A DNA stretch of 64,000 bases from contig CM075987.1 in assembly GCA_038087875.1 (NCBI GenBank), positions 24,616,001-24,680,000 on the forward strand, given 5' to 3'. The DNA is from Malacoraja senta. Its lineage: Eukaryota. The notes beneath the pieces are model-generated. The model was not told the origin of the DNA and searched no databases. It saw nothing but the letters and a program-made list of their open reading frames with translations. Positions 12,073-56,352 of the stretch are shown piece after piece (the stretch's first letter is position 1; the number at the start of each line of letters is the position of its first letter). The position numbers and the translations under genes were made by a program.

Positions 12073-12214
12073 CCTGAAGATGGACACAAAATGCTGGAGT
12101 AACTCAGCGGGACAGGCAGCATCTCCGGAGAGAAGGAATGGGTGACGTTTCGGGTCGAGGCCCTTCTTCAGACTAGAAGTCTGGGGTCAAGTATAGAGCG
12201 TTCACGTCGCGACC

Positions 12215-13962
12215 TGCTATTGAATAACTACTTTGGTTCCGTCTTCACTAAGGAAGACATAAATAATCTGCCGGAAATAGCAGGGGGCCGCGGGTCAAAG
12301 GAGATGGAGGAACTGAGTGAAATCCAGGTTAGTCGGGAAGTGGTGTTGGGTAAATTGAATGGATTAAAGGCCGATAAATCACCAGGGCCAGATAGGCTGC
12401 ATCCCAGAGTACTTAAGGAAGTAGCTCCAGATATAGTGGATGCATTAGTGATAATTTTTCAAAATTCTTTAGATTCTGGAGTAGTTCCTGAGGATTGGAG
12501 GGTAGCAAACGTAACCCCACTTTTTAAGAAGGGAGGGAGAGAGAAAACGGGGAATTACAGACCAGTTAGTCTAACCTCGGTAGTGGGGAAACTGCTAGAG
12601 TCAGTTATTAAAGATGGGATAGCAGCACATTTGGAAAGTGGTGAAATCATTGGACAAAGTCAGCATGGATTTACGAAAGGTAAATCGTGTCTGACGAATC
12701 TTATAGAATTTTTCGAGGATGTAACTAGTAGAGTGGATAGGGGAGAACCAGTGGATGTGTTGTATCTGGACTTTCAGAAGGCTTTCGACAAGGTACCACA
12801 TAAGAGATTAGGATACAAACTTAAATCACACGGTATTGGGGGTTCAGTATTGATGTGGATAGAGAACTGGCTGGCAAACAGGAAGCAAAGAGTAGGAGTA
12901 AACGGTCCTTTTCACAATGGCAGGCAGTGACTAGTGGGGTACCGCAAGGCTCAGTACTGGGACCCCAGTTATTTACAATTTATATTAATGATCTGGACGA
13001 GGGAATTGAAAGCAACATCTCCAAGTTTGCGGATGACACTAAGCTGGGGGGCAGTGTTAGCTGTGAGGAGGATGCTAGGAGACTGCAAGGTGACTTGGAT
13101 AGGCTGGGTGAGTGGGCAAATGTTTGGCAGATGCAGTATAATGTGGATAAATGTGAGGTTATCCACTTTGGTGGCAAAAACGGGAAGGCAGACTATTATC
13201 TAAATGGTGGCCGATTAGGAAATGGGGAGGTGCAGCGAGACCTGGTTGTCATGGTACACCAGTCATTGAAAGTAGGCATGCAGGTGCAGCAGGCAGTGAA
13301 GAAAGCGAATGGTATGTTGGCCTTCATAGCAAGAGGATTTGAGTATAGGTGCAGGGAGGTTCTACTGCAGTTGTACAGGGTCTTGGTGAGACCACACCTG
13401 GAGTATTGCGTACAGTTTTGGCCTCCAAATCTGAGGAAGGACATTATAGCCATAGAGGGAGTGCAGAGAAGGTTCACCAGACTGATTCCTGGGATGTCAG
13501 GACTTTCATATGAAGAAAGACTGGATAGACTTGGCTTATACTCGCTAGAATTTAGGAGATTGAGAGGGGATCTTATAGAAACGTACAAAATTCTTATGGG
13601 GTTGGACAGGCTAGATGCAGGAAGATTGTTCCCGATGTTGGGGAAGTCCAGGACAAGGGGTCACAGCTTAAGGATAAGGGGGAAATCCTTTAAGACCGAG
13701 ATGAGGAAAAACTTTTTCACACAGAGAGTGGTGAATCTCTGGAACTCTCTGCCACAGAGGGTAGTTGAGGCCAGTTCATTGGCTATATTTAAGAGGGAGT
13801 TAGATGTGGCCCTTGTGGCTAAAGGGATCAGGGGGTATGGAGAGAAGGCAGGTACGGGATACTGAGTTGGATGATCAGCCATGATCATATTGAATGGCGG
13901 TGCAGGCTCGTAGGGCCGAATGGCCTACTCCTGCACCTATTTTCTATGTATCTATGTATCTA
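12215..13962 (+). mobile_element. CR1 LINE, 5'-truncated, RT ORF with one frameshift near 12905
   Basis: KSPGPD, NYRPVSLTS, QHGF, LDFQKAFDKV in frame 1. SGVPQGSVLGP and FADD in frame 2. CR1 3' UTR and (ATCTATGT)n tail. Confidence 0.95.
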
Positions 13963-25693: not shown

Positions 25694-28236
25694 CATAGAA
25701 ACATAGAAACATAGAAAGTAGGTGCGAGAGTAGACCACCAGGCCCATCGAGCCCGCACCGCCATTCGCTCATGGCTGAACACTAAACAGACACCCTTACC
25801 CACAAACAGTAGACACAAGACACAGAACACAAGACACTACCCTCCCCTTTATATCGCTATCACCCCTCTCCACCCCAAGAACCGCGTGATCTCCTGGGGG
25901 AGGCAAAAAACCGGATAAAAACCCAGGTCCAATTCGGGAAAAAAATCCGGGAAATTCCTCTCCGACCCCAATCCAGGCGATCGACACTTGTCCAGGAGAT
26001 CACTCAGGTCTTACTATACTAACCCTACCTAGGTCCATATCCCTGCCCTCTCCCCGTAGCCCCTTATCCCCTTGGCAGCTAAACAACCATCTATTTTAGA
26101 CTTAAATATATTTAATGTTTCTGCTTCCACTGCTCCCTGGGGCAGTGAATTCCATAAATTAACCACCCTCTGGGTGAAGAAGTTCTTCCTCATCTCAGTT
26201 TTAAAAGAGCCCCCTCTTATTCTACAACTATGTCCCCTAGTTCTAGTTTCCCCGATCATTGGGAACATCCTCGGTGCATCCACCCAATCAAGGCCCCTCA
26301 CGATCTTATATGTTTCAATGAGATCGCCTCTCATTCTTCTAAACTCCAAAGAGTAGAGTTCCAGCCTACTTAACCTTTCCTCATATGTCAATCCCCTCAT
26401 TGCAGGAATTAATCTTGTAAACCTTCGCTGCACTGCCTCCAGGGCCAGTACATCCTTTCTTAAGTATGGACCCCAGAACTGTACACAGTATTCCAAATGT
26501 GGTCTCACTAATACTGTGTACAGCTGCAGCAAGACCTCCGTGTTTTTATACTCAATCCCCCTAGCAATAAAGGCCAAAACTCCATTGGCCTTCCTGATTG
26601 CTTGCTGCACCTGCATACTAACTTTTAGTGATTCATGTACTACTACCCCTAGATCCCTTTGCGTTGCATTACAACGCAGCTCCACCTCATTTAGAAAATA
26701 ACTTGCCCTATCATTTTTTTTCCCAAAGTGAATGACTTCACATTTATTAGTATTAAATTTCATCTGCCAAGTTGTTGCCCACTCACCTAGCTTATCTATA
26801 TCCTTTTGCAGACTCTTCCTATCCTCCTCATCCCCTACTTTTCCTCCCATTTTTGTATCGTCCGCAAATTTTGATATATTACACTTGGTTCCCTCCTCCA
26901 AATCGTTTATATAAATTGTGAACAACTGGGGTCCCAGCACCGACCCTTGCGGAACCCCGCTAGTTACCGGTTGCCATCCCGAGTATGAACCATTTATCCC
27001 CACTCTCTGCTTCCTATTTGTTAGCCAATCCTCTACCCATGCTAATATATTACCCCCAATCCCATAATTTTTTATTTTTAGCAATAGTCTCTTATGTGGC
27101 ACCTTGTCAAAAGCCTTTTGGAAGTCCAAGTATACCACATCCACCGGTTCCCCTTTATCCACCCGGGTTGTTACTTCCTCAAAGAATTCGAGCAGATTCG
27201 TTAAACAGGACTTCCCCTTCACAAAACCATGCTGGTTCTGTCCGATGAAGTCATGTTTATCCAAGTGCCCCGTTAGTGTTTCTTTAATAATTGTCTCTAA
27301 CATTTTACCCACCACCGATGTTAGACTAACCGGTCTATAGTTACCCGCCTTCTGTTTACTTCCTTTTTTAAATATAGGTGTTACATTGGCCATTTTCCAA
27401 TCCACTGGGACCGTTCCTGCCTCCAGGGAGTTTTGGAAAATTATCACCAATGCATCCACAATCCCCACCGCTATCTCCCTCAAGACCCTTGGATGTAATC
27501 CATCAGGCCCAGGGGATTTATCCTCCTTCAGTCTCATTAATTTCCCTAATACCACCTCCTTGGTGATCTTAATAGTATTTAGCTCCTCCATTCCTACCGC
27601 CCCCTGTTTATCCAGCGTTGGAATATTTTTTGTGTCTTCTATGGTGAAGACTGATACAAAATACTCGTTTAATGCCTTTGCCATTTCCATGTTCCCCACC
27701 AACAACTCTCCAGTCTCACCCTCCAATGGACCAACGTTCACCTTAGCCACCCTTTTTCTTTTTATATAGCTATAAAAACTCTTACTATTAGTTTTTATGT
27801 TGTTCGCTAAATTCCTTTCATAGTCTATTTTCCCCGTCTTAATTAATCTCTTAGTTATTTTTTGCTGACCTTTAAATGCTTCCCAATCCTCTACCCTCCC
27901 ACTATCTCTAGCTACCTTATATGCCCTTGCCTTCAGCCGAATACTATCCTTTATAGTTTTACTGAGCCATGGCTGACTGTTCTTTCCCTTACCCCTTTTT
28001 TTCTTCATAGGAATAAATTTTTCTTGAAGGTTATACAGTAGATCCTTAAACGTACACCACTGCTCATGTACCGTCTTATTCTTGAGTCTGCTATCCCAGT
28101 CAACTTTGATCAGCTCAGTCCTCATACCTTCATAATCCCCTTTATTTAGACTAAGTACCCTAGCCTGAGTTTCAACCTGCTCTCCTTCTATTTGAATATG
28201 GAATTCGACCATATTGGTATCACTTGTTCCCAACGA
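25694..28236 (-). mobile_element. Young CR1 LINE, 5'-truncated, inserted in an older CR1 3' end
   Basis: 7-bp duplication tagtgta at 25687-25693 and 28237-28243, (TTTCTATG)n tail and uninterrupted ORF2. Confidence 0.95.
26029..28233 (-). CDS. CR1 ORF2 (reverse transcriptase), 734 codons open, N-terminal endonuclease lost by 5' truncation
   Basis: KSPGPDG, NYRPVSLTS, QHGF, YLDFQKAFDKV, SGVPQGSVLGP, FADD and CR1 C-terminus with no stops or frameshifts. Unlikely to be expressed as a full protein. Confidence 0.9.
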   Translation of the reverse strand: MGTSDTNMVEFHIQIEGEQVETQARVLSLNKGDYEGMRTELIKVDWDSRLKNKTVHEQWCTFKDLLYNLQEKFIPMKKKRGKGKNSQPWLSKTIKDSIRLKARAYKVARDSGRVEDWEAFKGQQKITKRLIKTGKIDYERNLANNIKTNSKSFYSYIKRKRVAKVNVGPLEGETGELLVGNMEMAKALNEYFVSVFTIEDTKNIPTLDKQGAVGMEELNTIKITKEVVLGKLMRLKEDKSPGPDGLHPRVLREIAVGIVDALVIIFQNSLEAGTVPVDWKMANVTPIFKKGSKQKAGNYRPVSLTSVVGKMLETIIKETLTGHLDKHDFIGQNQHGFVKGKSCLTNLLEFFEEVTTRVDKGEPVDVVYLDFQKAFDKVPHKRLLLKIKNYGIGGNILAWVEDWLTNRKQRVGINGSYSGWQPVTSGVPQGSVLGPQLFTIYINDLEEGTKCNISKFADDTKMGGKVGDEEDRKSLQKDIDKLGEWATTWQMKFNTNKCEVIHFGKKNDRASYFLNEVELRCNATQRDLGVVVHESLKVSMQVQQAIRKANGVLAFIARGIEYKNTEVLLQLYTVLVRPHLEYCVQFWGPYLRKDVLALEAVQRRFTRLIPAMRGLTYEERLSRLELYSLEFRRMRGDLIETYKIVRGLDWVDAPRMFPMIGETRTRGHSCRIRGGSFKTEMRKNFFTQRVVNLWNSLPQGAVEAETLNIFKSKIDGCLAAKGIRGYGERAGIWT

Positions 28237-28626
28237 TAGTGTAGATGGGACATGTTGGTCGGTGTGAGCAAGTTGGGCCGAAGGGCCTGTTTCTACGCTG
28301 TGTACCAGTTATGAATTTACATCCTGTTTTTACTCTTCTTACAGTTTGATGATATTTCTTCCCCTCTTCTTAGACGGAAAGTACACAAAGTGTAACAAAT
28401 AACAGCAGGATTCAGAGATTGCTGAATCGCATAGCTTCAAATCATGAGAGGAATAGATTGGGTAGATGCACAGTAGGGGAATCAAGGTCCAGAGGACATA
28501 GGTTTAAGGTGAGGGGGGAGGAAAGATTTAATAGGAACCTGAGGGTTCCAGGCACACAAAGGGTGGTGGGTGTATCTAACGAGCTGCTGGAGGAGGGAGT
28601 TGAGGCAGGTTCTTTTGCAACGTTGA

Positions 28627-45338: not shown

Positions 45339-46600
45339 AAACTCACAAACTCACTCTCCAGCATAGAACTTGCAGAAACTAGGTGCTTGGGATTGAAGTC
45401 ACATTTTTTGATTAGTTTGGTTTATTATTGTCACATTTATTAGATTTTATAATTCGGACCACTAGGCTGTAGGGGGGATGCATTTTTTAATTGTTAATTA
45501 TTGGTCCTTTTAAGTATTTATTGCTCTCAGGTAGTGTCCACATTGTATTTGATGTATTTTCTGTCTGCGTTCGTTTTGAATGTGTGGGTATGTTGGTTGG
45601 AGGCTTCTGGACATCTGAATTTCCCCGAGGGGATCAATAAAGTATTTATTAATGATTATTAAAAGCATTTTTTATTGCCTGCTATCCAGTCAGCAAAAAG
45701 ACTATACAATTGTTCCCTTCATCATGTATCCGTACACTGTGGACGGCTCGGTTGTAATCATGTGTTGTCTTTCCGCTGACTGGTTAGCACGCGACAAAAG
45801 CGTCTCACTCTACCCCGGCACACGTGACAATAAACTCAACTCAAACTCAAATCAAGCTGTCCACAATGTAGGGATACAGGATAAAGGGAATAATGTTGAG
45901 TGCAAGATAAGATTAGTAGAAAGAAAAAGGGTCTCGACCTGAAGCATCACCTATCCATATTCCCCAGAGATGCTGCCTGACCTGCTGAGTTACTCCAGCT
46001 GTTTGTGTCCTTTTAAGTTTTCGATTATTTTGGTCATATTTTTCTTTGACATAGAATATTGGAACACTGAAGTCAAATAAAGAAACCACAAGGACATAAA
46101 TGAACTATCATTACTGTGGAAAATAATACATTACACAGCCTCCGACCGAAACATCACCTATTCTTTTCTCCGGAGATGCTGCCTGACCCGCTGAGTTACT
46201 CCAGCAGATTGAGTCGACCTAAAGATTTTTAGGATATTTTTTTTTAAATGAAGGATTGATATTTCAAGTGTTAACTTGTCATTCATCTTTGTGGTCAGCA
46301 GGCACGGCAGATGTGCTGCAAGCTTACTTCATGTTGGTTCAAATAAAATTCAGCGCACTTCGAAACCGCACCTGCCAGGAGCCAAAAGTGGTTGGTGGAA
46401 GTAGCTTTTCCGCAAGGTGAATAGAGCATTGAGAAGGTTGTTCACATCACTTCAGGGGTAATACACGCTGGTCTCACAAACACATGCCAGGTACCAAAAA
46501 TGAATTTTAAAAAGCAAAATTGTTTGACGGAAGAAAAAAAAGTGAATTATCTTTAAAATTGAGTTAAACAAAAATGCTGGAGAAACTCAGCGAGTGAGGC

Positions 46601-46738
46601 TTCTTCTTCTTTCGTGTGGCGTGCACAGCCTAAAGTTGTAGGACAACTTGTTCTATTTGATCTTCTGTGTGTGCACGTCGAGTTGATTGCATTAGTCGAA
46701 ACAGGGCAGACCACGTGAAGGTTGCAATCTTCCACCAC
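46601..46738 (-). mobile_element. 137-bp non-autonomous retroelement with (GAA)n tail and 5' HDV-like ribozyme
   Basis: 13-bp duplication cagcg(a/g)gtgaggc at 46588-46600 and 46738-46750. Tail gaaagaagaagaa. No tRNA-like A/B boxes seen. Confidence 0.8.
46685..46738 (-). ncRNA. Putative minimal HDV/CPEB3-like self-cleaving ribozyme
   Basis: Manual fold: P1 GUGGUGG/CUGCCCU, P2 GAUUGCA/UGCAAUC, P3 ACC/GGU, L3 UUCACGU, J4/2 CUAA. P4 is reduced to a UUCG loop. Confidence 0.72.
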
Positions 46739-46903
46739 AGCGGGTGAGGCAGCATCTATGGAGCGAAGGAATGGGTGACGCTTCGGTCGAGACCCTTCTT
46801 CAGACTGACTACCTTCGACTGTTCCAGCATCTGCAGTTCCTTCTTAAACATTTAAAATTGAGATAAAATGTTTTGATGATTGACAGGGCCAGAAGAGGAC
46901 TGA

Positions 46904-54747: not shown

Positions 54748-56352
54748 CAGTGGCTTGCAAAAGTTTTCATACCCCTTGAACTTTTCCACATTTTGTCACA
54801 ACCACCAACGTAAATGTATTTTATTGGGATTTTATGTGATAGATCAACACAAAGTGGCGCACAATTGTGAAGTGGAAGGAAAATGATACATGGTTTTCAA
54901 ACTTTTTTACAAATAAAAAACTGAAAAGTGTCGTGTGCAAAGGTATTCAGCCCCCCTGAGTCAATACTTTGTAGAACCACCTTTCGCTGCAATTACAGCT
55001 GCAAGTCTTTTGGGGTATGTCTCTACCAGCTTTGCACATCTAGAGACTGATATTTTTGCCCATTCTTCTTTGCAAAATAGCTCAAGCTCAGTCAGATTGG
55101 ATGGAGAGCGTCTGTGAACAGCAATTTTCAAGTCTTGCCAGAGCTTCTCAATTGGATTTAGGTCTGGACTTTGACTGGGCCATTCTAACACATGAATATG
55201 CTTTGATCTAAACCATTCCATTGTAGCTCTGGCTGTATGTTTAGGGTTGTTGTCCTGCTGGAAGGTGAACCTCCGCCCCAGTCTCAAGTCTTTTGCAGAC
55301 TCTAACATGTTTTCTTCCAAGATTGCCCTGTATTTGGCTCCATCCATCTTCCCATCAACTCTGACCAGCTTCCCTGTCCCTGATGAAAAAAAGCATCCCC
55401 ACAGCATGATGCTGCCACCACCATGTTTCACAGTGGGGATGGTGTGTTCAGGGTGATGTGCAGTGTTAGGTTTCCGCCACACATAGCGTTTTGCATTTAG
55501 GCCAAAAACTTCAATTTTGGTCTCATCTGACCAGAGCACCTTCCTCTACATGTTTGCTGTGTCCCCCACATGGCTTGTGGCAAACTGCAAACGGGACTTC
55601 TTATGGCTTTTTTTCAACAATGGCTTTCTTCTTGCCACTCTTCCATAAAGGCCCGATTTGTGGAGTGCACGACTAATAGTTGTCCTGTGGACAGATTCTC
55701 CCACCTGAGCTGTGGATCTCTGCAGCTCCTCCAGAGTTACCATGGGCCTCTTGGCTGCTTCTCTGATCAATGCTCTCCTTGCCCGGCCTGTCAGTTTAGG
55801 TGGACGGCCATGTCTTGGTAGGTTTGCAGTTGTGCCATACTCTTTCCATTTTCGGATGATGGATTGAACAGTGCTCCGTGAGATGTTCAAAGCTTGGGAT
55901 ATTTTTTTATAACCTAACCCTGCTTTAAACTTCTCCACAACTTTATCCCTGACCTGTCTGGTGTGTTCCTTGGGCTTCATGATGCTGTTTGTTCACTAAT
56001 GTTCTCTAACAAACCTCTGAAGCCTTCACAGAACAGCTGTATTGATACTGAGATTAGATTACACACAAGTGGACTCTATTTACTAATTAGGTGACTTCTG
56101 AAGGCAATTGGTTGCACTGGATTTTATTTAGGGGTATCAGAGTAAAGGGGGCTGAATACTTTTGCACGCGACACTTTTCAGTTTTTTATTTGTAAAAAAA
56201 TTTGAAAACCATTTTCCTTCCACTTCACAATTATGCGCCACTTTGTGTTGGTCTATCACATAAAATCCCAATAAAATACATTTACGTTTGTGGTTGTAAC
56301 GTGACAAAATGTGGAAAAGTTCAAGGGGTATGAATACTTTTGCAAGCCACTG
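54748..56352 (-). mobile_element. Tc1/mariner IR/DR transposon, Passport-like, full length (1605 bp)
   Basis: TA target duplication. TIRs of about 205 bp (54748-54956, 56147-56352) start cagtggcttgcaaaag and contain an inner direct repeat gtgcaaa(a/g)gtattcag. Confidence 0.97.
54961..55980 (-). pseudogene. Tc1 DD34E transposase, 339 codons with one in-frame TAG (55546-55548)
   Basis: ORFs 55546..55980 and 54961..55539 are in the same frame: ..GDTANM*RKVLWSDETK..QQDNNPKH..SPDLNPIE..KGGSTKY. GRPPK and paired-like HTH in the N-terminus. Confidence 0.95.

Follow-up and report, generated by a model that had tools for sequence, protein, structure and literature searches.

Hepatitis delta virus (HDV)-type ribozymes are known to head several retrotransposons. 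Reviews including PMC6765202 and PMC7761336 describe them in R2, RTE, Baggins and L1Tc, and present some short interspersed elements (SINEs) that use hammerhead or HDV-like ribozymes. In these heads, as in the element treated here, the ribozyme comes first and its cut is expected to define the 5' end of the co-transcript RNA; the published cases covered by the search come from insects, trypanosomes and other invertebrates, whereas the present one is from Malacoraja senta, a cartilaginous fish. The window analysed is the whole stretch of 64,000 nucleotides (contig CM075987.1, positions 24,616,001 to 24,680,000), in which a 138-nt stretch on the minus strand (46738..46601) splits a very common repeat. 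With a probability of about 0.75, this insert is taken to be a dead copy of a SINE-like, protein-less retroposon of the kind without long terminal repeats (non-LTR). Its first 54 nt would form a minimal HDV/CPEB3 ribozyme without stem P4, which would cut the RNA of the element from read-through transcripts, the RNA then being copied by an RTE-like long interspersed element (LINE).

The head of the SINE-like element shares with the CPEB3 ribozyme (RF00622) the nested double pseudoknot, an identical loop L3 (UUCACGU), the letters CCCUGU after P1 and a C-N-A-A junction J4/2 directly before the 3' strand of P2. Also the head of the candidate partner LINE resembles it, with an 18-nt run in common with the Rfam consensus (AGAAGCGUUCACGUCGCG) and scores of 61-64 bits. 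The CPEB3 ribozyme is single-copy, lies in a mammalian intron and has a P4 stem-loop, whereas the ribozymes described here head mobile elements of a cartilaginous fish. The SINE head further differs from it in the reduction of P4 to 5 nt and in the letters of P1, P2 and P3, which are different but compensated, and it falls below the family cut-off. Nor does the SINE occupy the position orthologous to the CPEB3 intron of mammals, since thousands of its copies, bearing target duplications, are scattered through the genome.

NARTc of Trypanosoma cruzi and R2 SIDE are examples of short elements that code for no protein but retain the ribozyme head and the 3' end required by their LINE, as described in PMC3383444 and PMC3414825. 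These arose by internal deletion of the LINE and share its head, whereas here no helix of the SINE head is the same as in the LINE head, and P4 has been lost from it. The present SINE is dispersed and not rDNA-specific, and it greatly outnumbers the LINE: an exact word of its head was counted 5,225 times, and one of the LINE 3' end 166 times. Since HDV-like heads are described in reviews, and NARTc and R2 SIDE are non-autonomous carriers, the kind of system is already known, and ribozyme trimming of retrotransposon RNAs is not a new principle.

The drz-Mtgn type and the theta ribozymes of gut phages resemble the SINE head in having no P4 and a core of P1, P2, P3 and J4/2 within about 54 nt. 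Minimal HDV-like ribozymes are reported by PMC10879173 (2024) from metagenomes and phages, often after tRNA genes, the phages accounting for nearly 99%; this class can do without P4, and its origin and role are called undetermined there. The ribozyme described here differs from the phage forms in that it has an evident role, as part of a vertebrate retroposon, and core letters of the CPEB3 type. Schistosome Sm-alpha and the retrozymes are likewise small non-coding mobile repeats with a self-cleaving motif (PMC6765202), but they are hammerhead repeats cut into monomers, some of which circularise, whereas an HDV-type head only trims the RNA upstream of it.

The insert and its family

Read on the minus strand from 46738, the head of the insert is GUGGUGG-AA-GAUUGCA-ACC-UUCACGU-GGU-CUGCCCU-GU-UUCGA-CUAA-UGCAAUC. 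It is exactly as described in the first-pass annotation of the window, with seven perfect pairs in P2, three pairs in P3 (ACC/GGU) and a P1 including G1.U and one mismatch; the positions of P1 are G1.U, the mismatch U2xC, G-C, G-C, U.G, G.U and G-C. The 3' end may be read as GAAAGAAGAAGAA or, in a longer reading, as ...CACACGAAAGAAGAAGAA. A 28-mer of the head has an expected count of 0 in shuffled window sequence, which together with the family-level evidence argues that the match of the head is not due to chance.

Both flanks of the insert read agcg[a/g]gtgaggc. Among the loci compared, 52 flank-match pairs in other copies of the host repeat are uninterrupted across the insertion site, which confirms both the insertion and where it starts and stops. 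Most of these pairs overlap by the 12 duplicated bases, so that the target duplication is 12 bp long. Of the 13 bp claimed earlier, the 13th base (c at 46588 and 46738) may belong either to the duplication or to the element as G1. The host repeat (…AAAAUGCUGGAGAAACUCAGCGGGUGAGGCAGCAUCUAUGGAGCGAAGGAA…; window 46440-46600 and 46739-46900, 52 paralogous sites) is extremely abundant and is present in the flanks of many unrelated loci. Its supposed derivation from a Penelope element was not confirmed, as Rfam places no hammerhead or other family there and the neighbouring sequence contains no Penelope protein domain.

An exact 21-mer of the head, covering P2, P3 and L3, occurs 5,225 times genome-wide (2,619 + 2,606), and its reversed control 0 times. 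With the insert as query, 1,946 first-look candidates were found in the 1.94-Gb assembly, the best 40 scored being 98-100% identical, and a query from an older subfamily gave 2,634 candidates. The copies divide into at least four subfamilies. Pieces of the unit also occur by the hundred in the sequencing-run contigs of three organisms, where the flanks are unrelated but start at the same two ends.

Among 59 distinct top-scoring copies, which are biased to full length, 37 have the target duplication directly next to position 1. A single extra base precedes position 1 in ten of the 59 (T in seven of the ten), two bases in four and four bases in one, while seven copies have no duplication. A second sample consisted of the first 20 exact-word places in coordinate order, regardless of score, two of which share flanks. 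All 20 reach position 1; the duplication abuts it in 13, one copy has one extra base, one has two, and five have no duplication. The family is thus large and recently active, and the target duplications place its 5' end at G1. The frequent extra T would fit a reverse transcriptase that puts an untemplated A on the finished cDNA.

The first seven bases are GGGGUGG in 49 of the 59 top-scoring copies, and the 3' strand of P1 is CCGCCCU, CUGCCCU or CCACCCU across copies; P1 would therefore comprise seven pairs, the one at the cut site being G1.U. Pairs five and six alternate among U-A, U.G, G-C and G.U. A multi-copy family, with 5' ends piling up at G1 and a P1 restored toward GGGGYGG in other copies, had been expected from the window alone, and all three expectations were borne out, GGGGUGG pairing with CC[G/A]CCCU. 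Changes between the subfamilies fall, within the head, in J1/2, in pair-keeping positions of P1 (U-A, U.G, G.U) or in the N of CNAA. The second letter of J4/2 in the 20 coordinate-order copies is U in six, G in eight, A in five and C in one, with the C and the AA kept; such variation matches a C-N-A-A junction.

The window copy is a member of the young 'CUGCCCU' subfamily with a further change of G2 to U. It is slightly decayed: this change comes on top of CUGCCCU, P1 is absent from the minimum-free-energy fold, and its sole Rfam match reaches 9.9 bits, with no CPEB3 match. With two changes in P1 it is probably a poor or dead cutter.

Some copies show other kinds of rearrangement. In contigs of runs X12 and X2, a variant has the first 68 nt (the ribozyme head and 14 nt) tandemly duplicated before the full element (L006:1571-1639, with 1638 joined back to 1571). 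At L009 (G000 C1:97233360-97236495) a young copy of the SINE is nested in an older, oppositely oriented copy of its own family. Copies with identical flanks and regular spacing were found at C2:75442110-75446777 (2,266 bp), C4714:2539177-2689571 (~50, 100 kb) and C11:2015984-2053180 (37 kb); because of the identical flanks and the regular spacing, these have spread by tandem or segmental duplication and not by retroposition.

The head as a probable HDV-family ribozyme

When 81 nt of the intact copy L006 were compared with 4,227 Rfam families at E up to 10, only three matches were obtained, all of them with HDV-family models: CPEB3_ribozyme with 23.1 bits (E 1.4e-4), HDV-F-prausnitzii with 16.0 bits and HDV_ribozyme with 15.0 bits. 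In all three alignments the first P1 base of the model falls on G1, and P4 is deleted. The Rfam signal emerged only with this short stretch of a better-preserved copy; 540 nt around the window copy gave noise only, and the whole window gave nothing at the gathering score.

A search of the genome with the CPEB3 model was decisive. It listed 60 places, of which 39 pass the cut-off, with a top score of 64.2 bits; in 14 control genomes no place passes. These places represent several repeat families with full-size ribozymes (A to E). The head of family A is GGGGAUC..GGUAGAA-GCG-UUCACGU-CGC-GAUCCCU-GU-P4-CGAA-UUCUACC, and families B to E have other, compensated helices, the J4/2 of family B being CUAA. 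The full-size heads of these four families lie at L076, L080 and L084 (B), L083, L085, L087, L111 and L096 (C), L086 (D) and L089, L095 and L097 (E). Neither a 3' end nor a target duplication was found for families B to E within 1.5 kb of the head.

Family F is a second SINE-like family without P4, about 210 nt long and ending in GAUAAGAAGAAGAA plus a duplication. Its head, GGGG[U/C]C-AA-GGAAAGA-GCG-UUCACGU-CGC-GGCCCCU-GU-UUCCA-CCAA-UCUUUCC, passes the CPEB3 cut-off at 36-44 bits despite having no P4, and an exact 24-mer of the family occurs 14 times. The loci of this family are L093, L094 and L098-L110 (e.g. L105:251-303:-). In L102 and L103, GGGGCC pairs with GGCCCU in a compensated P1 of 6 bp, and most copies of the family have a T directly before the first G, often inside the target duplication. 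The sister family also bears on the earlier description of P4 as shrunk to a UUCG loop. P4 is indeed absent from the SINE head and replaced by the 5-nt UUCGA, but with UUCCA in family F this segment is a linker and not a conserved tetraloop.

The covariation of the helices was scored in an alignment of 17 heads (five of the SINE, four of family F and eight full-size), over 23 pairs in P1, the pseudoknotted P2, P3 and the first six pairs of P4. The proportion of cells paired was 93.4%, against 71.2% in shuffled alignments (reached by 0 of 500) and 38-49% when the partners were slid. The covariation score was 0.528, against 0.185 with shuffling (again reached by 0 of 500) and at most 0.113 with slid partners. 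Sixteen of the 23 pairs change on both sides, including 6 of 7 in P2, 2 of 3 in P3, 3 of 7 in P1 and 5 of 6 in P4. The helices of the SINE head thus covary with those of the full-size CPEB3-type ribozymes of the same genome, and P1, P2 and P3 stand in nested double-pseudoknot order by sequence, alignment and covariation. Two of the checks proposed with the first-pass annotation, an Infernal search with the CPEB3 and HDV models and one of covariation in P1, P2 and P3, which was seen across families, accordingly had the outcome it had anticipated.

HDV-like ribozymes have a C-N-R-A junction J4/2, containing the catalytic C, directly before the 3' strand of P2. In the 17 heads C44 hardly varies and A46 and A47 do not vary at all, and the HDV and F. 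prausnitzii models place J4/2 at this same site. Invariant or nearly so are also most of L3 and CCCU-GU, which together with the C and the two A of J4/2 are the letters expected of the core. C22 and G37, both invariant and hence without covariation, could form the pair P1.1 between L3 and J1/4. In HDV-like ribozymes the cut lies at the first base of P1, usually a G1.U wobble. At the level of the sequence, the predicted cleavage site falls at the first base of P1 here too, with G1.U in 10 of the 12 alignment rows having letters there and the duplications abutting G1.

Candidate partner LINE, proposed cycle and rival explanations

The search for an autonomous LINE, suggested by the first-pass annotation, yielded one autonomous element with a like head and the same (GAA)n tail. 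This LINE, to which the family A head belongs, is about 3,137 nt long, ends in ...CAAAGACACGAAAAGAAGAAGAA and has the target duplication ACAGAACAAAA. An open reading frame (ORF) of 940 aa, counted stop to stop, begins about 85 nt after the head and contains Exo_endo_phos/Exo_endo_phos_2 and RVT_1 domains. A full-length copy with the CPEB3-type head is formed by L073:1512-3084 with L092:1-1633 (G000 C1:217550496-217553632), and further loci of the family are L072, L074, L075, L077, L078, L081, L082, L088 and L091. The 3' 25-mer of the LINE was the word that occurred 166 times; a 28-mer of its head occurs 4 times, and several head and tail places are 3.1 kb apart. Relatives of its protein, with 50-69% identity and lengths of 900-1,000 aa, are encoded by contigs about 3.2 kb long and are spread over many animal phyla; their sources include aphids, moths, crabs, sea urchin, amphioxus, Anolis and an icefish.

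Elements of the RTE clade are about 3.2 kb long, encode AP-type endonuclease and reverse transcriptase in a single long ORF, and end in a short simple-repeat tail. The build of the partner LINE fits this pattern and points to an RTE-like element. The earlier suggestion had been a LINE of the Ingi/Vingi or RTE clade, of which the RTE part agrees with this build while Ingi/Vingi found no support. A partner of the latter kind was dropped, the sole autonomous element with such a head and tail being of the RTE-like single-ORF build.

The SINE and the LINE have the head type, the terminal ACACGAAA and the (GAA)n tail in common and nothing more. A LINE with the exact 18-nt 3' end of the SINE but other upstream sequence was sought and none was found, the three places obtained all being SINE copies with indels. 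Eight places with the head followed by a non-SINE body proved to be copies with internal deletions, members of the older subfamily and, at L034 and L036, interrupted copies; downstream of these last two no LINE ORF is present. Relatives of the LINE in metagenome contigs comprised two loci, both cut before the 5' end.

In the proposed cycle, source copies would be transcribed within longer host or neighbouring transcripts. The head would then fold and cut immediately 5' of G1, leaving a product RNA that begins with G1; HDV-like ribozymes need divalent ions for this reaction and leave a 5' hydroxyl. The protein of an RTE-like LINE may recognise the ACACGAAA-(GAA)n end of this RNA and prime on the nicked target, and its reverse transcriptase would copy the RNA to the exact 5' end, often adding one untemplated base. 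As the ribozyme lies wholly downstream of its own cut, each new copy would carry it along.

Several points weigh against this interpretation. The 23.1 bits of the SINE head are below the curated cut-off of 35 for CPEB3 (RF00622), and UUCGA stands in the place of a P4 stem-loop; to our knowledge, no P4-less CPEB3-type ribozyme has been assayed. Minimum-free-energy folds of three intact P4-less heads give P1 and P3, with energies no better than those of shuffles (z -0.04 to +0.36). Cleavage is inferred from sequence: the 24 sequencing runs found are all assembled contigs, which cannot show RNA ends, and the four that were compared with the element display its unit and the ends of that unit, but no RNA starts. 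The rows of the covariation alignment are related, and some are decayed copies. Divergence is lower in the head than in the body among copies, but this is biased by the choice of copies, and the contrast between subfamily consensuses (1-3 of 54 positions in the head vs 0-14 of 86 in the body) is modest; conservation among dead copies carries little information. The assignment of the LINE to the RTE type is drawn from architecture and not from a tree. The 3' end shared by SINE and LINE comprises only about 8-9 nt plus (GAA)n, and the heads differ in P1, P2 and P3. Because the shared sequence is short and the heads differ, we infer the partnership and do not claim to demonstrate it.

The lack of P4, the score under the Rfam cut-off and the fold energies no better than shuffles also favour the rival explanation that survives best, although it is judged improbable. 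The head would be a crippled relic in which the loss of P4 has killed cleavage; the pseudoknot would now be a binding site of the LINE protein or an internal promoter, and the initiation of transcription would set the 5' end. The R2 protein is known to bind its 5' pseudoknot, and Pr77 is the internal promoter of L1Tc. A dual role as promoter and ribozyme is described for L1Tc in PMC3383444, which also speaks for such a relic. It would leave to coincidence, however, that transcription starts exactly on the first base of P1. A relic would hardly be expected to leave two separate P4-less families keeping compensated P1, P2 and P3 in different letters together with the catalytic C and the AA, and an active J4/2 should show just what is seen in CNAA, where the N alone varies freely. 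Minimal P4-less HDV-like ribozymes are, moreover, presented as an established class in PMC10879173.

That the element is an ordinary SINE derived from tRNA, 5S or 7SL, starting where RNA polymerase III (Pol III) starts and only incidentally resembling an HDV ribozyme, is very unlikely. ARAGORN finds no tRNA, Rfam at E up to 10 reports HDV-family models only and no tRNA, 5S or 7SL, and the head has homologues among ribozymes with which a LINE begins. Counted for a Pol III origin were the lack of a run of four T on the sense strand of the element and the segment GUUUCGACUAA, loosely similar to the B-box consensus. The element is short, dispersed and non-coding and has target-site duplications and a 3' tail which, over a short stretch (ACACGAAA and GAA repeats), is that of a LINE, as expected of a non-autonomous non-LTR retroposon. 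A classical SINE has an internal Pol III promoter from tRNA, 5S or 7SL, and no such homology was detected by Rfam or ARAGORN; the element is thus classed as SINE-like in behaviour and not as a classical SINE. A chance likeness to the HDV fold, in a repeat whose 5' end happens to fall there, has next to no probability given the family-level Rfam matches, the relatives above the cut-off and a covariation above every shuffle and slid control, even if the window copy alone is weak (P1 mismatch, 9.9 bits).

In the literature searched, no vertebrate RTE-like LINE is described as starting with a CPEB3-type ribozyme, key primary papers being beyond the reach of the search. The search likewise found no CPEB3-type ribozymes on retrotransposons of cartilaginous fish and no RTE origin of the CPEB3 ribozyme, with Dfam, Repbase and key primary papers outside its scope. 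New within the literature searched are a vertebrate SINE-like family of thousands of copies that appears to set its 5' end by a ribozyme and not by a Pol III promoter, the P4-less minimal form in a eukaryotic retroelement, with an evident job and with full-size relatives, and the closeness in sequence of these relatives to the mammalian CPEB3 ribozyme. The main interest lies in this minimal form and in the unexpected closeness of the LINE head to the mammalian ribozyme.

A tentative proposal, which we hold to be rather doubtful, is that the mammalian CPEB3 ribozyme is a domesticated head of an RTE-type retrotransposon and did not arise de novo in the intron. The ribozyme of this lineage would be active in the present fish, where P4 would have been shed repeatedly to give minimal 54-nt drivers of SINEs. 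The proposal is based on the 18-nt core run that the LINE head shares with the Rfam CPEB3 consensus and on its score against a model built from mammals. If it is true, 'minimal' HDV-like ribozymes would have a second natural home in eukaryotic retroelements, from which they might also have come. The closeness of the LINE head to the CPEB3 ribozyme makes the origin of the latter directly testable, and the natural compensated variants of P1, P2 and P3, together with the free N in CNAA, already provide a set of mutational data on the minimal fold.

Features of the window

The features of the insert and of its target site are collected in Table 1.

Table 1. Positions, strands and supporting evidence of the features of the insert, in coordinates of the window.
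Feature	Position	Strand	Evidence
Retroposon copy, 137/138 nt, non-autonomous	46601..46738	-	Window sequence, genome copies, paralogous sites
P1 5' strand GUGGUGG; predicted cleavage site directly 5' of G at 46738	46732..46738	-	Copies and covariation
P2 5' strand GAUUGCA	46723..46729	-	Covariation (6 of 7 P2 pairs change both sides across families)
P3 ACC/GGU around L3 UUCACGU; L3 as in the Rfam CPEB3 consensus	46710..46722	-	Rfam, covariation
P1 3' strand CUGCCCU (other subfamilies CCGCCCU or CCACCCU)	46703..46709	-	Subfamily comparison
J1/4 GU, then 5-nt linker UUCGA, in the place of P4 of full-size relatives	46696..46702	-	24 alignment columns empty in P4-less rows
J4/2 CUAA, candidate catalytic C at 46695	46692..46695	-	Alignment; HDV models align J4/2 here
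P2 3' strand UGCAAUC	46685..46691	-	Sequence and covariation
Element body, predicted long hairpin ACGUGCACA with UGUGCACG	46614..46684	-	Fold of equivalent copy L006:1501-1638:-; energy no better than shuffles
3' end GAAAGAAGAAGAA, (GAA)n tail preceded by ACACGAAA; RTE-like LINE likewise ends ACACGAAAAGAAGAAGAA	46601..46613	-	Sequence comparison
Target-site duplication beside tail, agcgagtgaggc	46589..46600	.	Sequence and paralogous sites
Target-site duplication beside G1, agcgggtgaggc	46739..46750	.	Sequence and paralogous sites

According to the survey of domains and ORFs, the remainder of the window consists of transposon remains only. A frameshifted reverse-transcriptase remnant lies at 12103-13862 (+), with the halves of RVT_1 in two overlapping frames. 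Tc1/mariner-type transposase remains are present at 54964-55992 (-), where DDE_3, HTH_Tnp_Tc3_2 and a Sleeping Beauty HTH domain are found in two adjacent frames. At 26032-28308 (-) there is an open CR1-like LINE frame of 759 aa with an RVT_1 domain, 99% identical to a database protein of 958 aa; its best named relatives are from manta ray (58%) and bamboo shark (67% over half its length).
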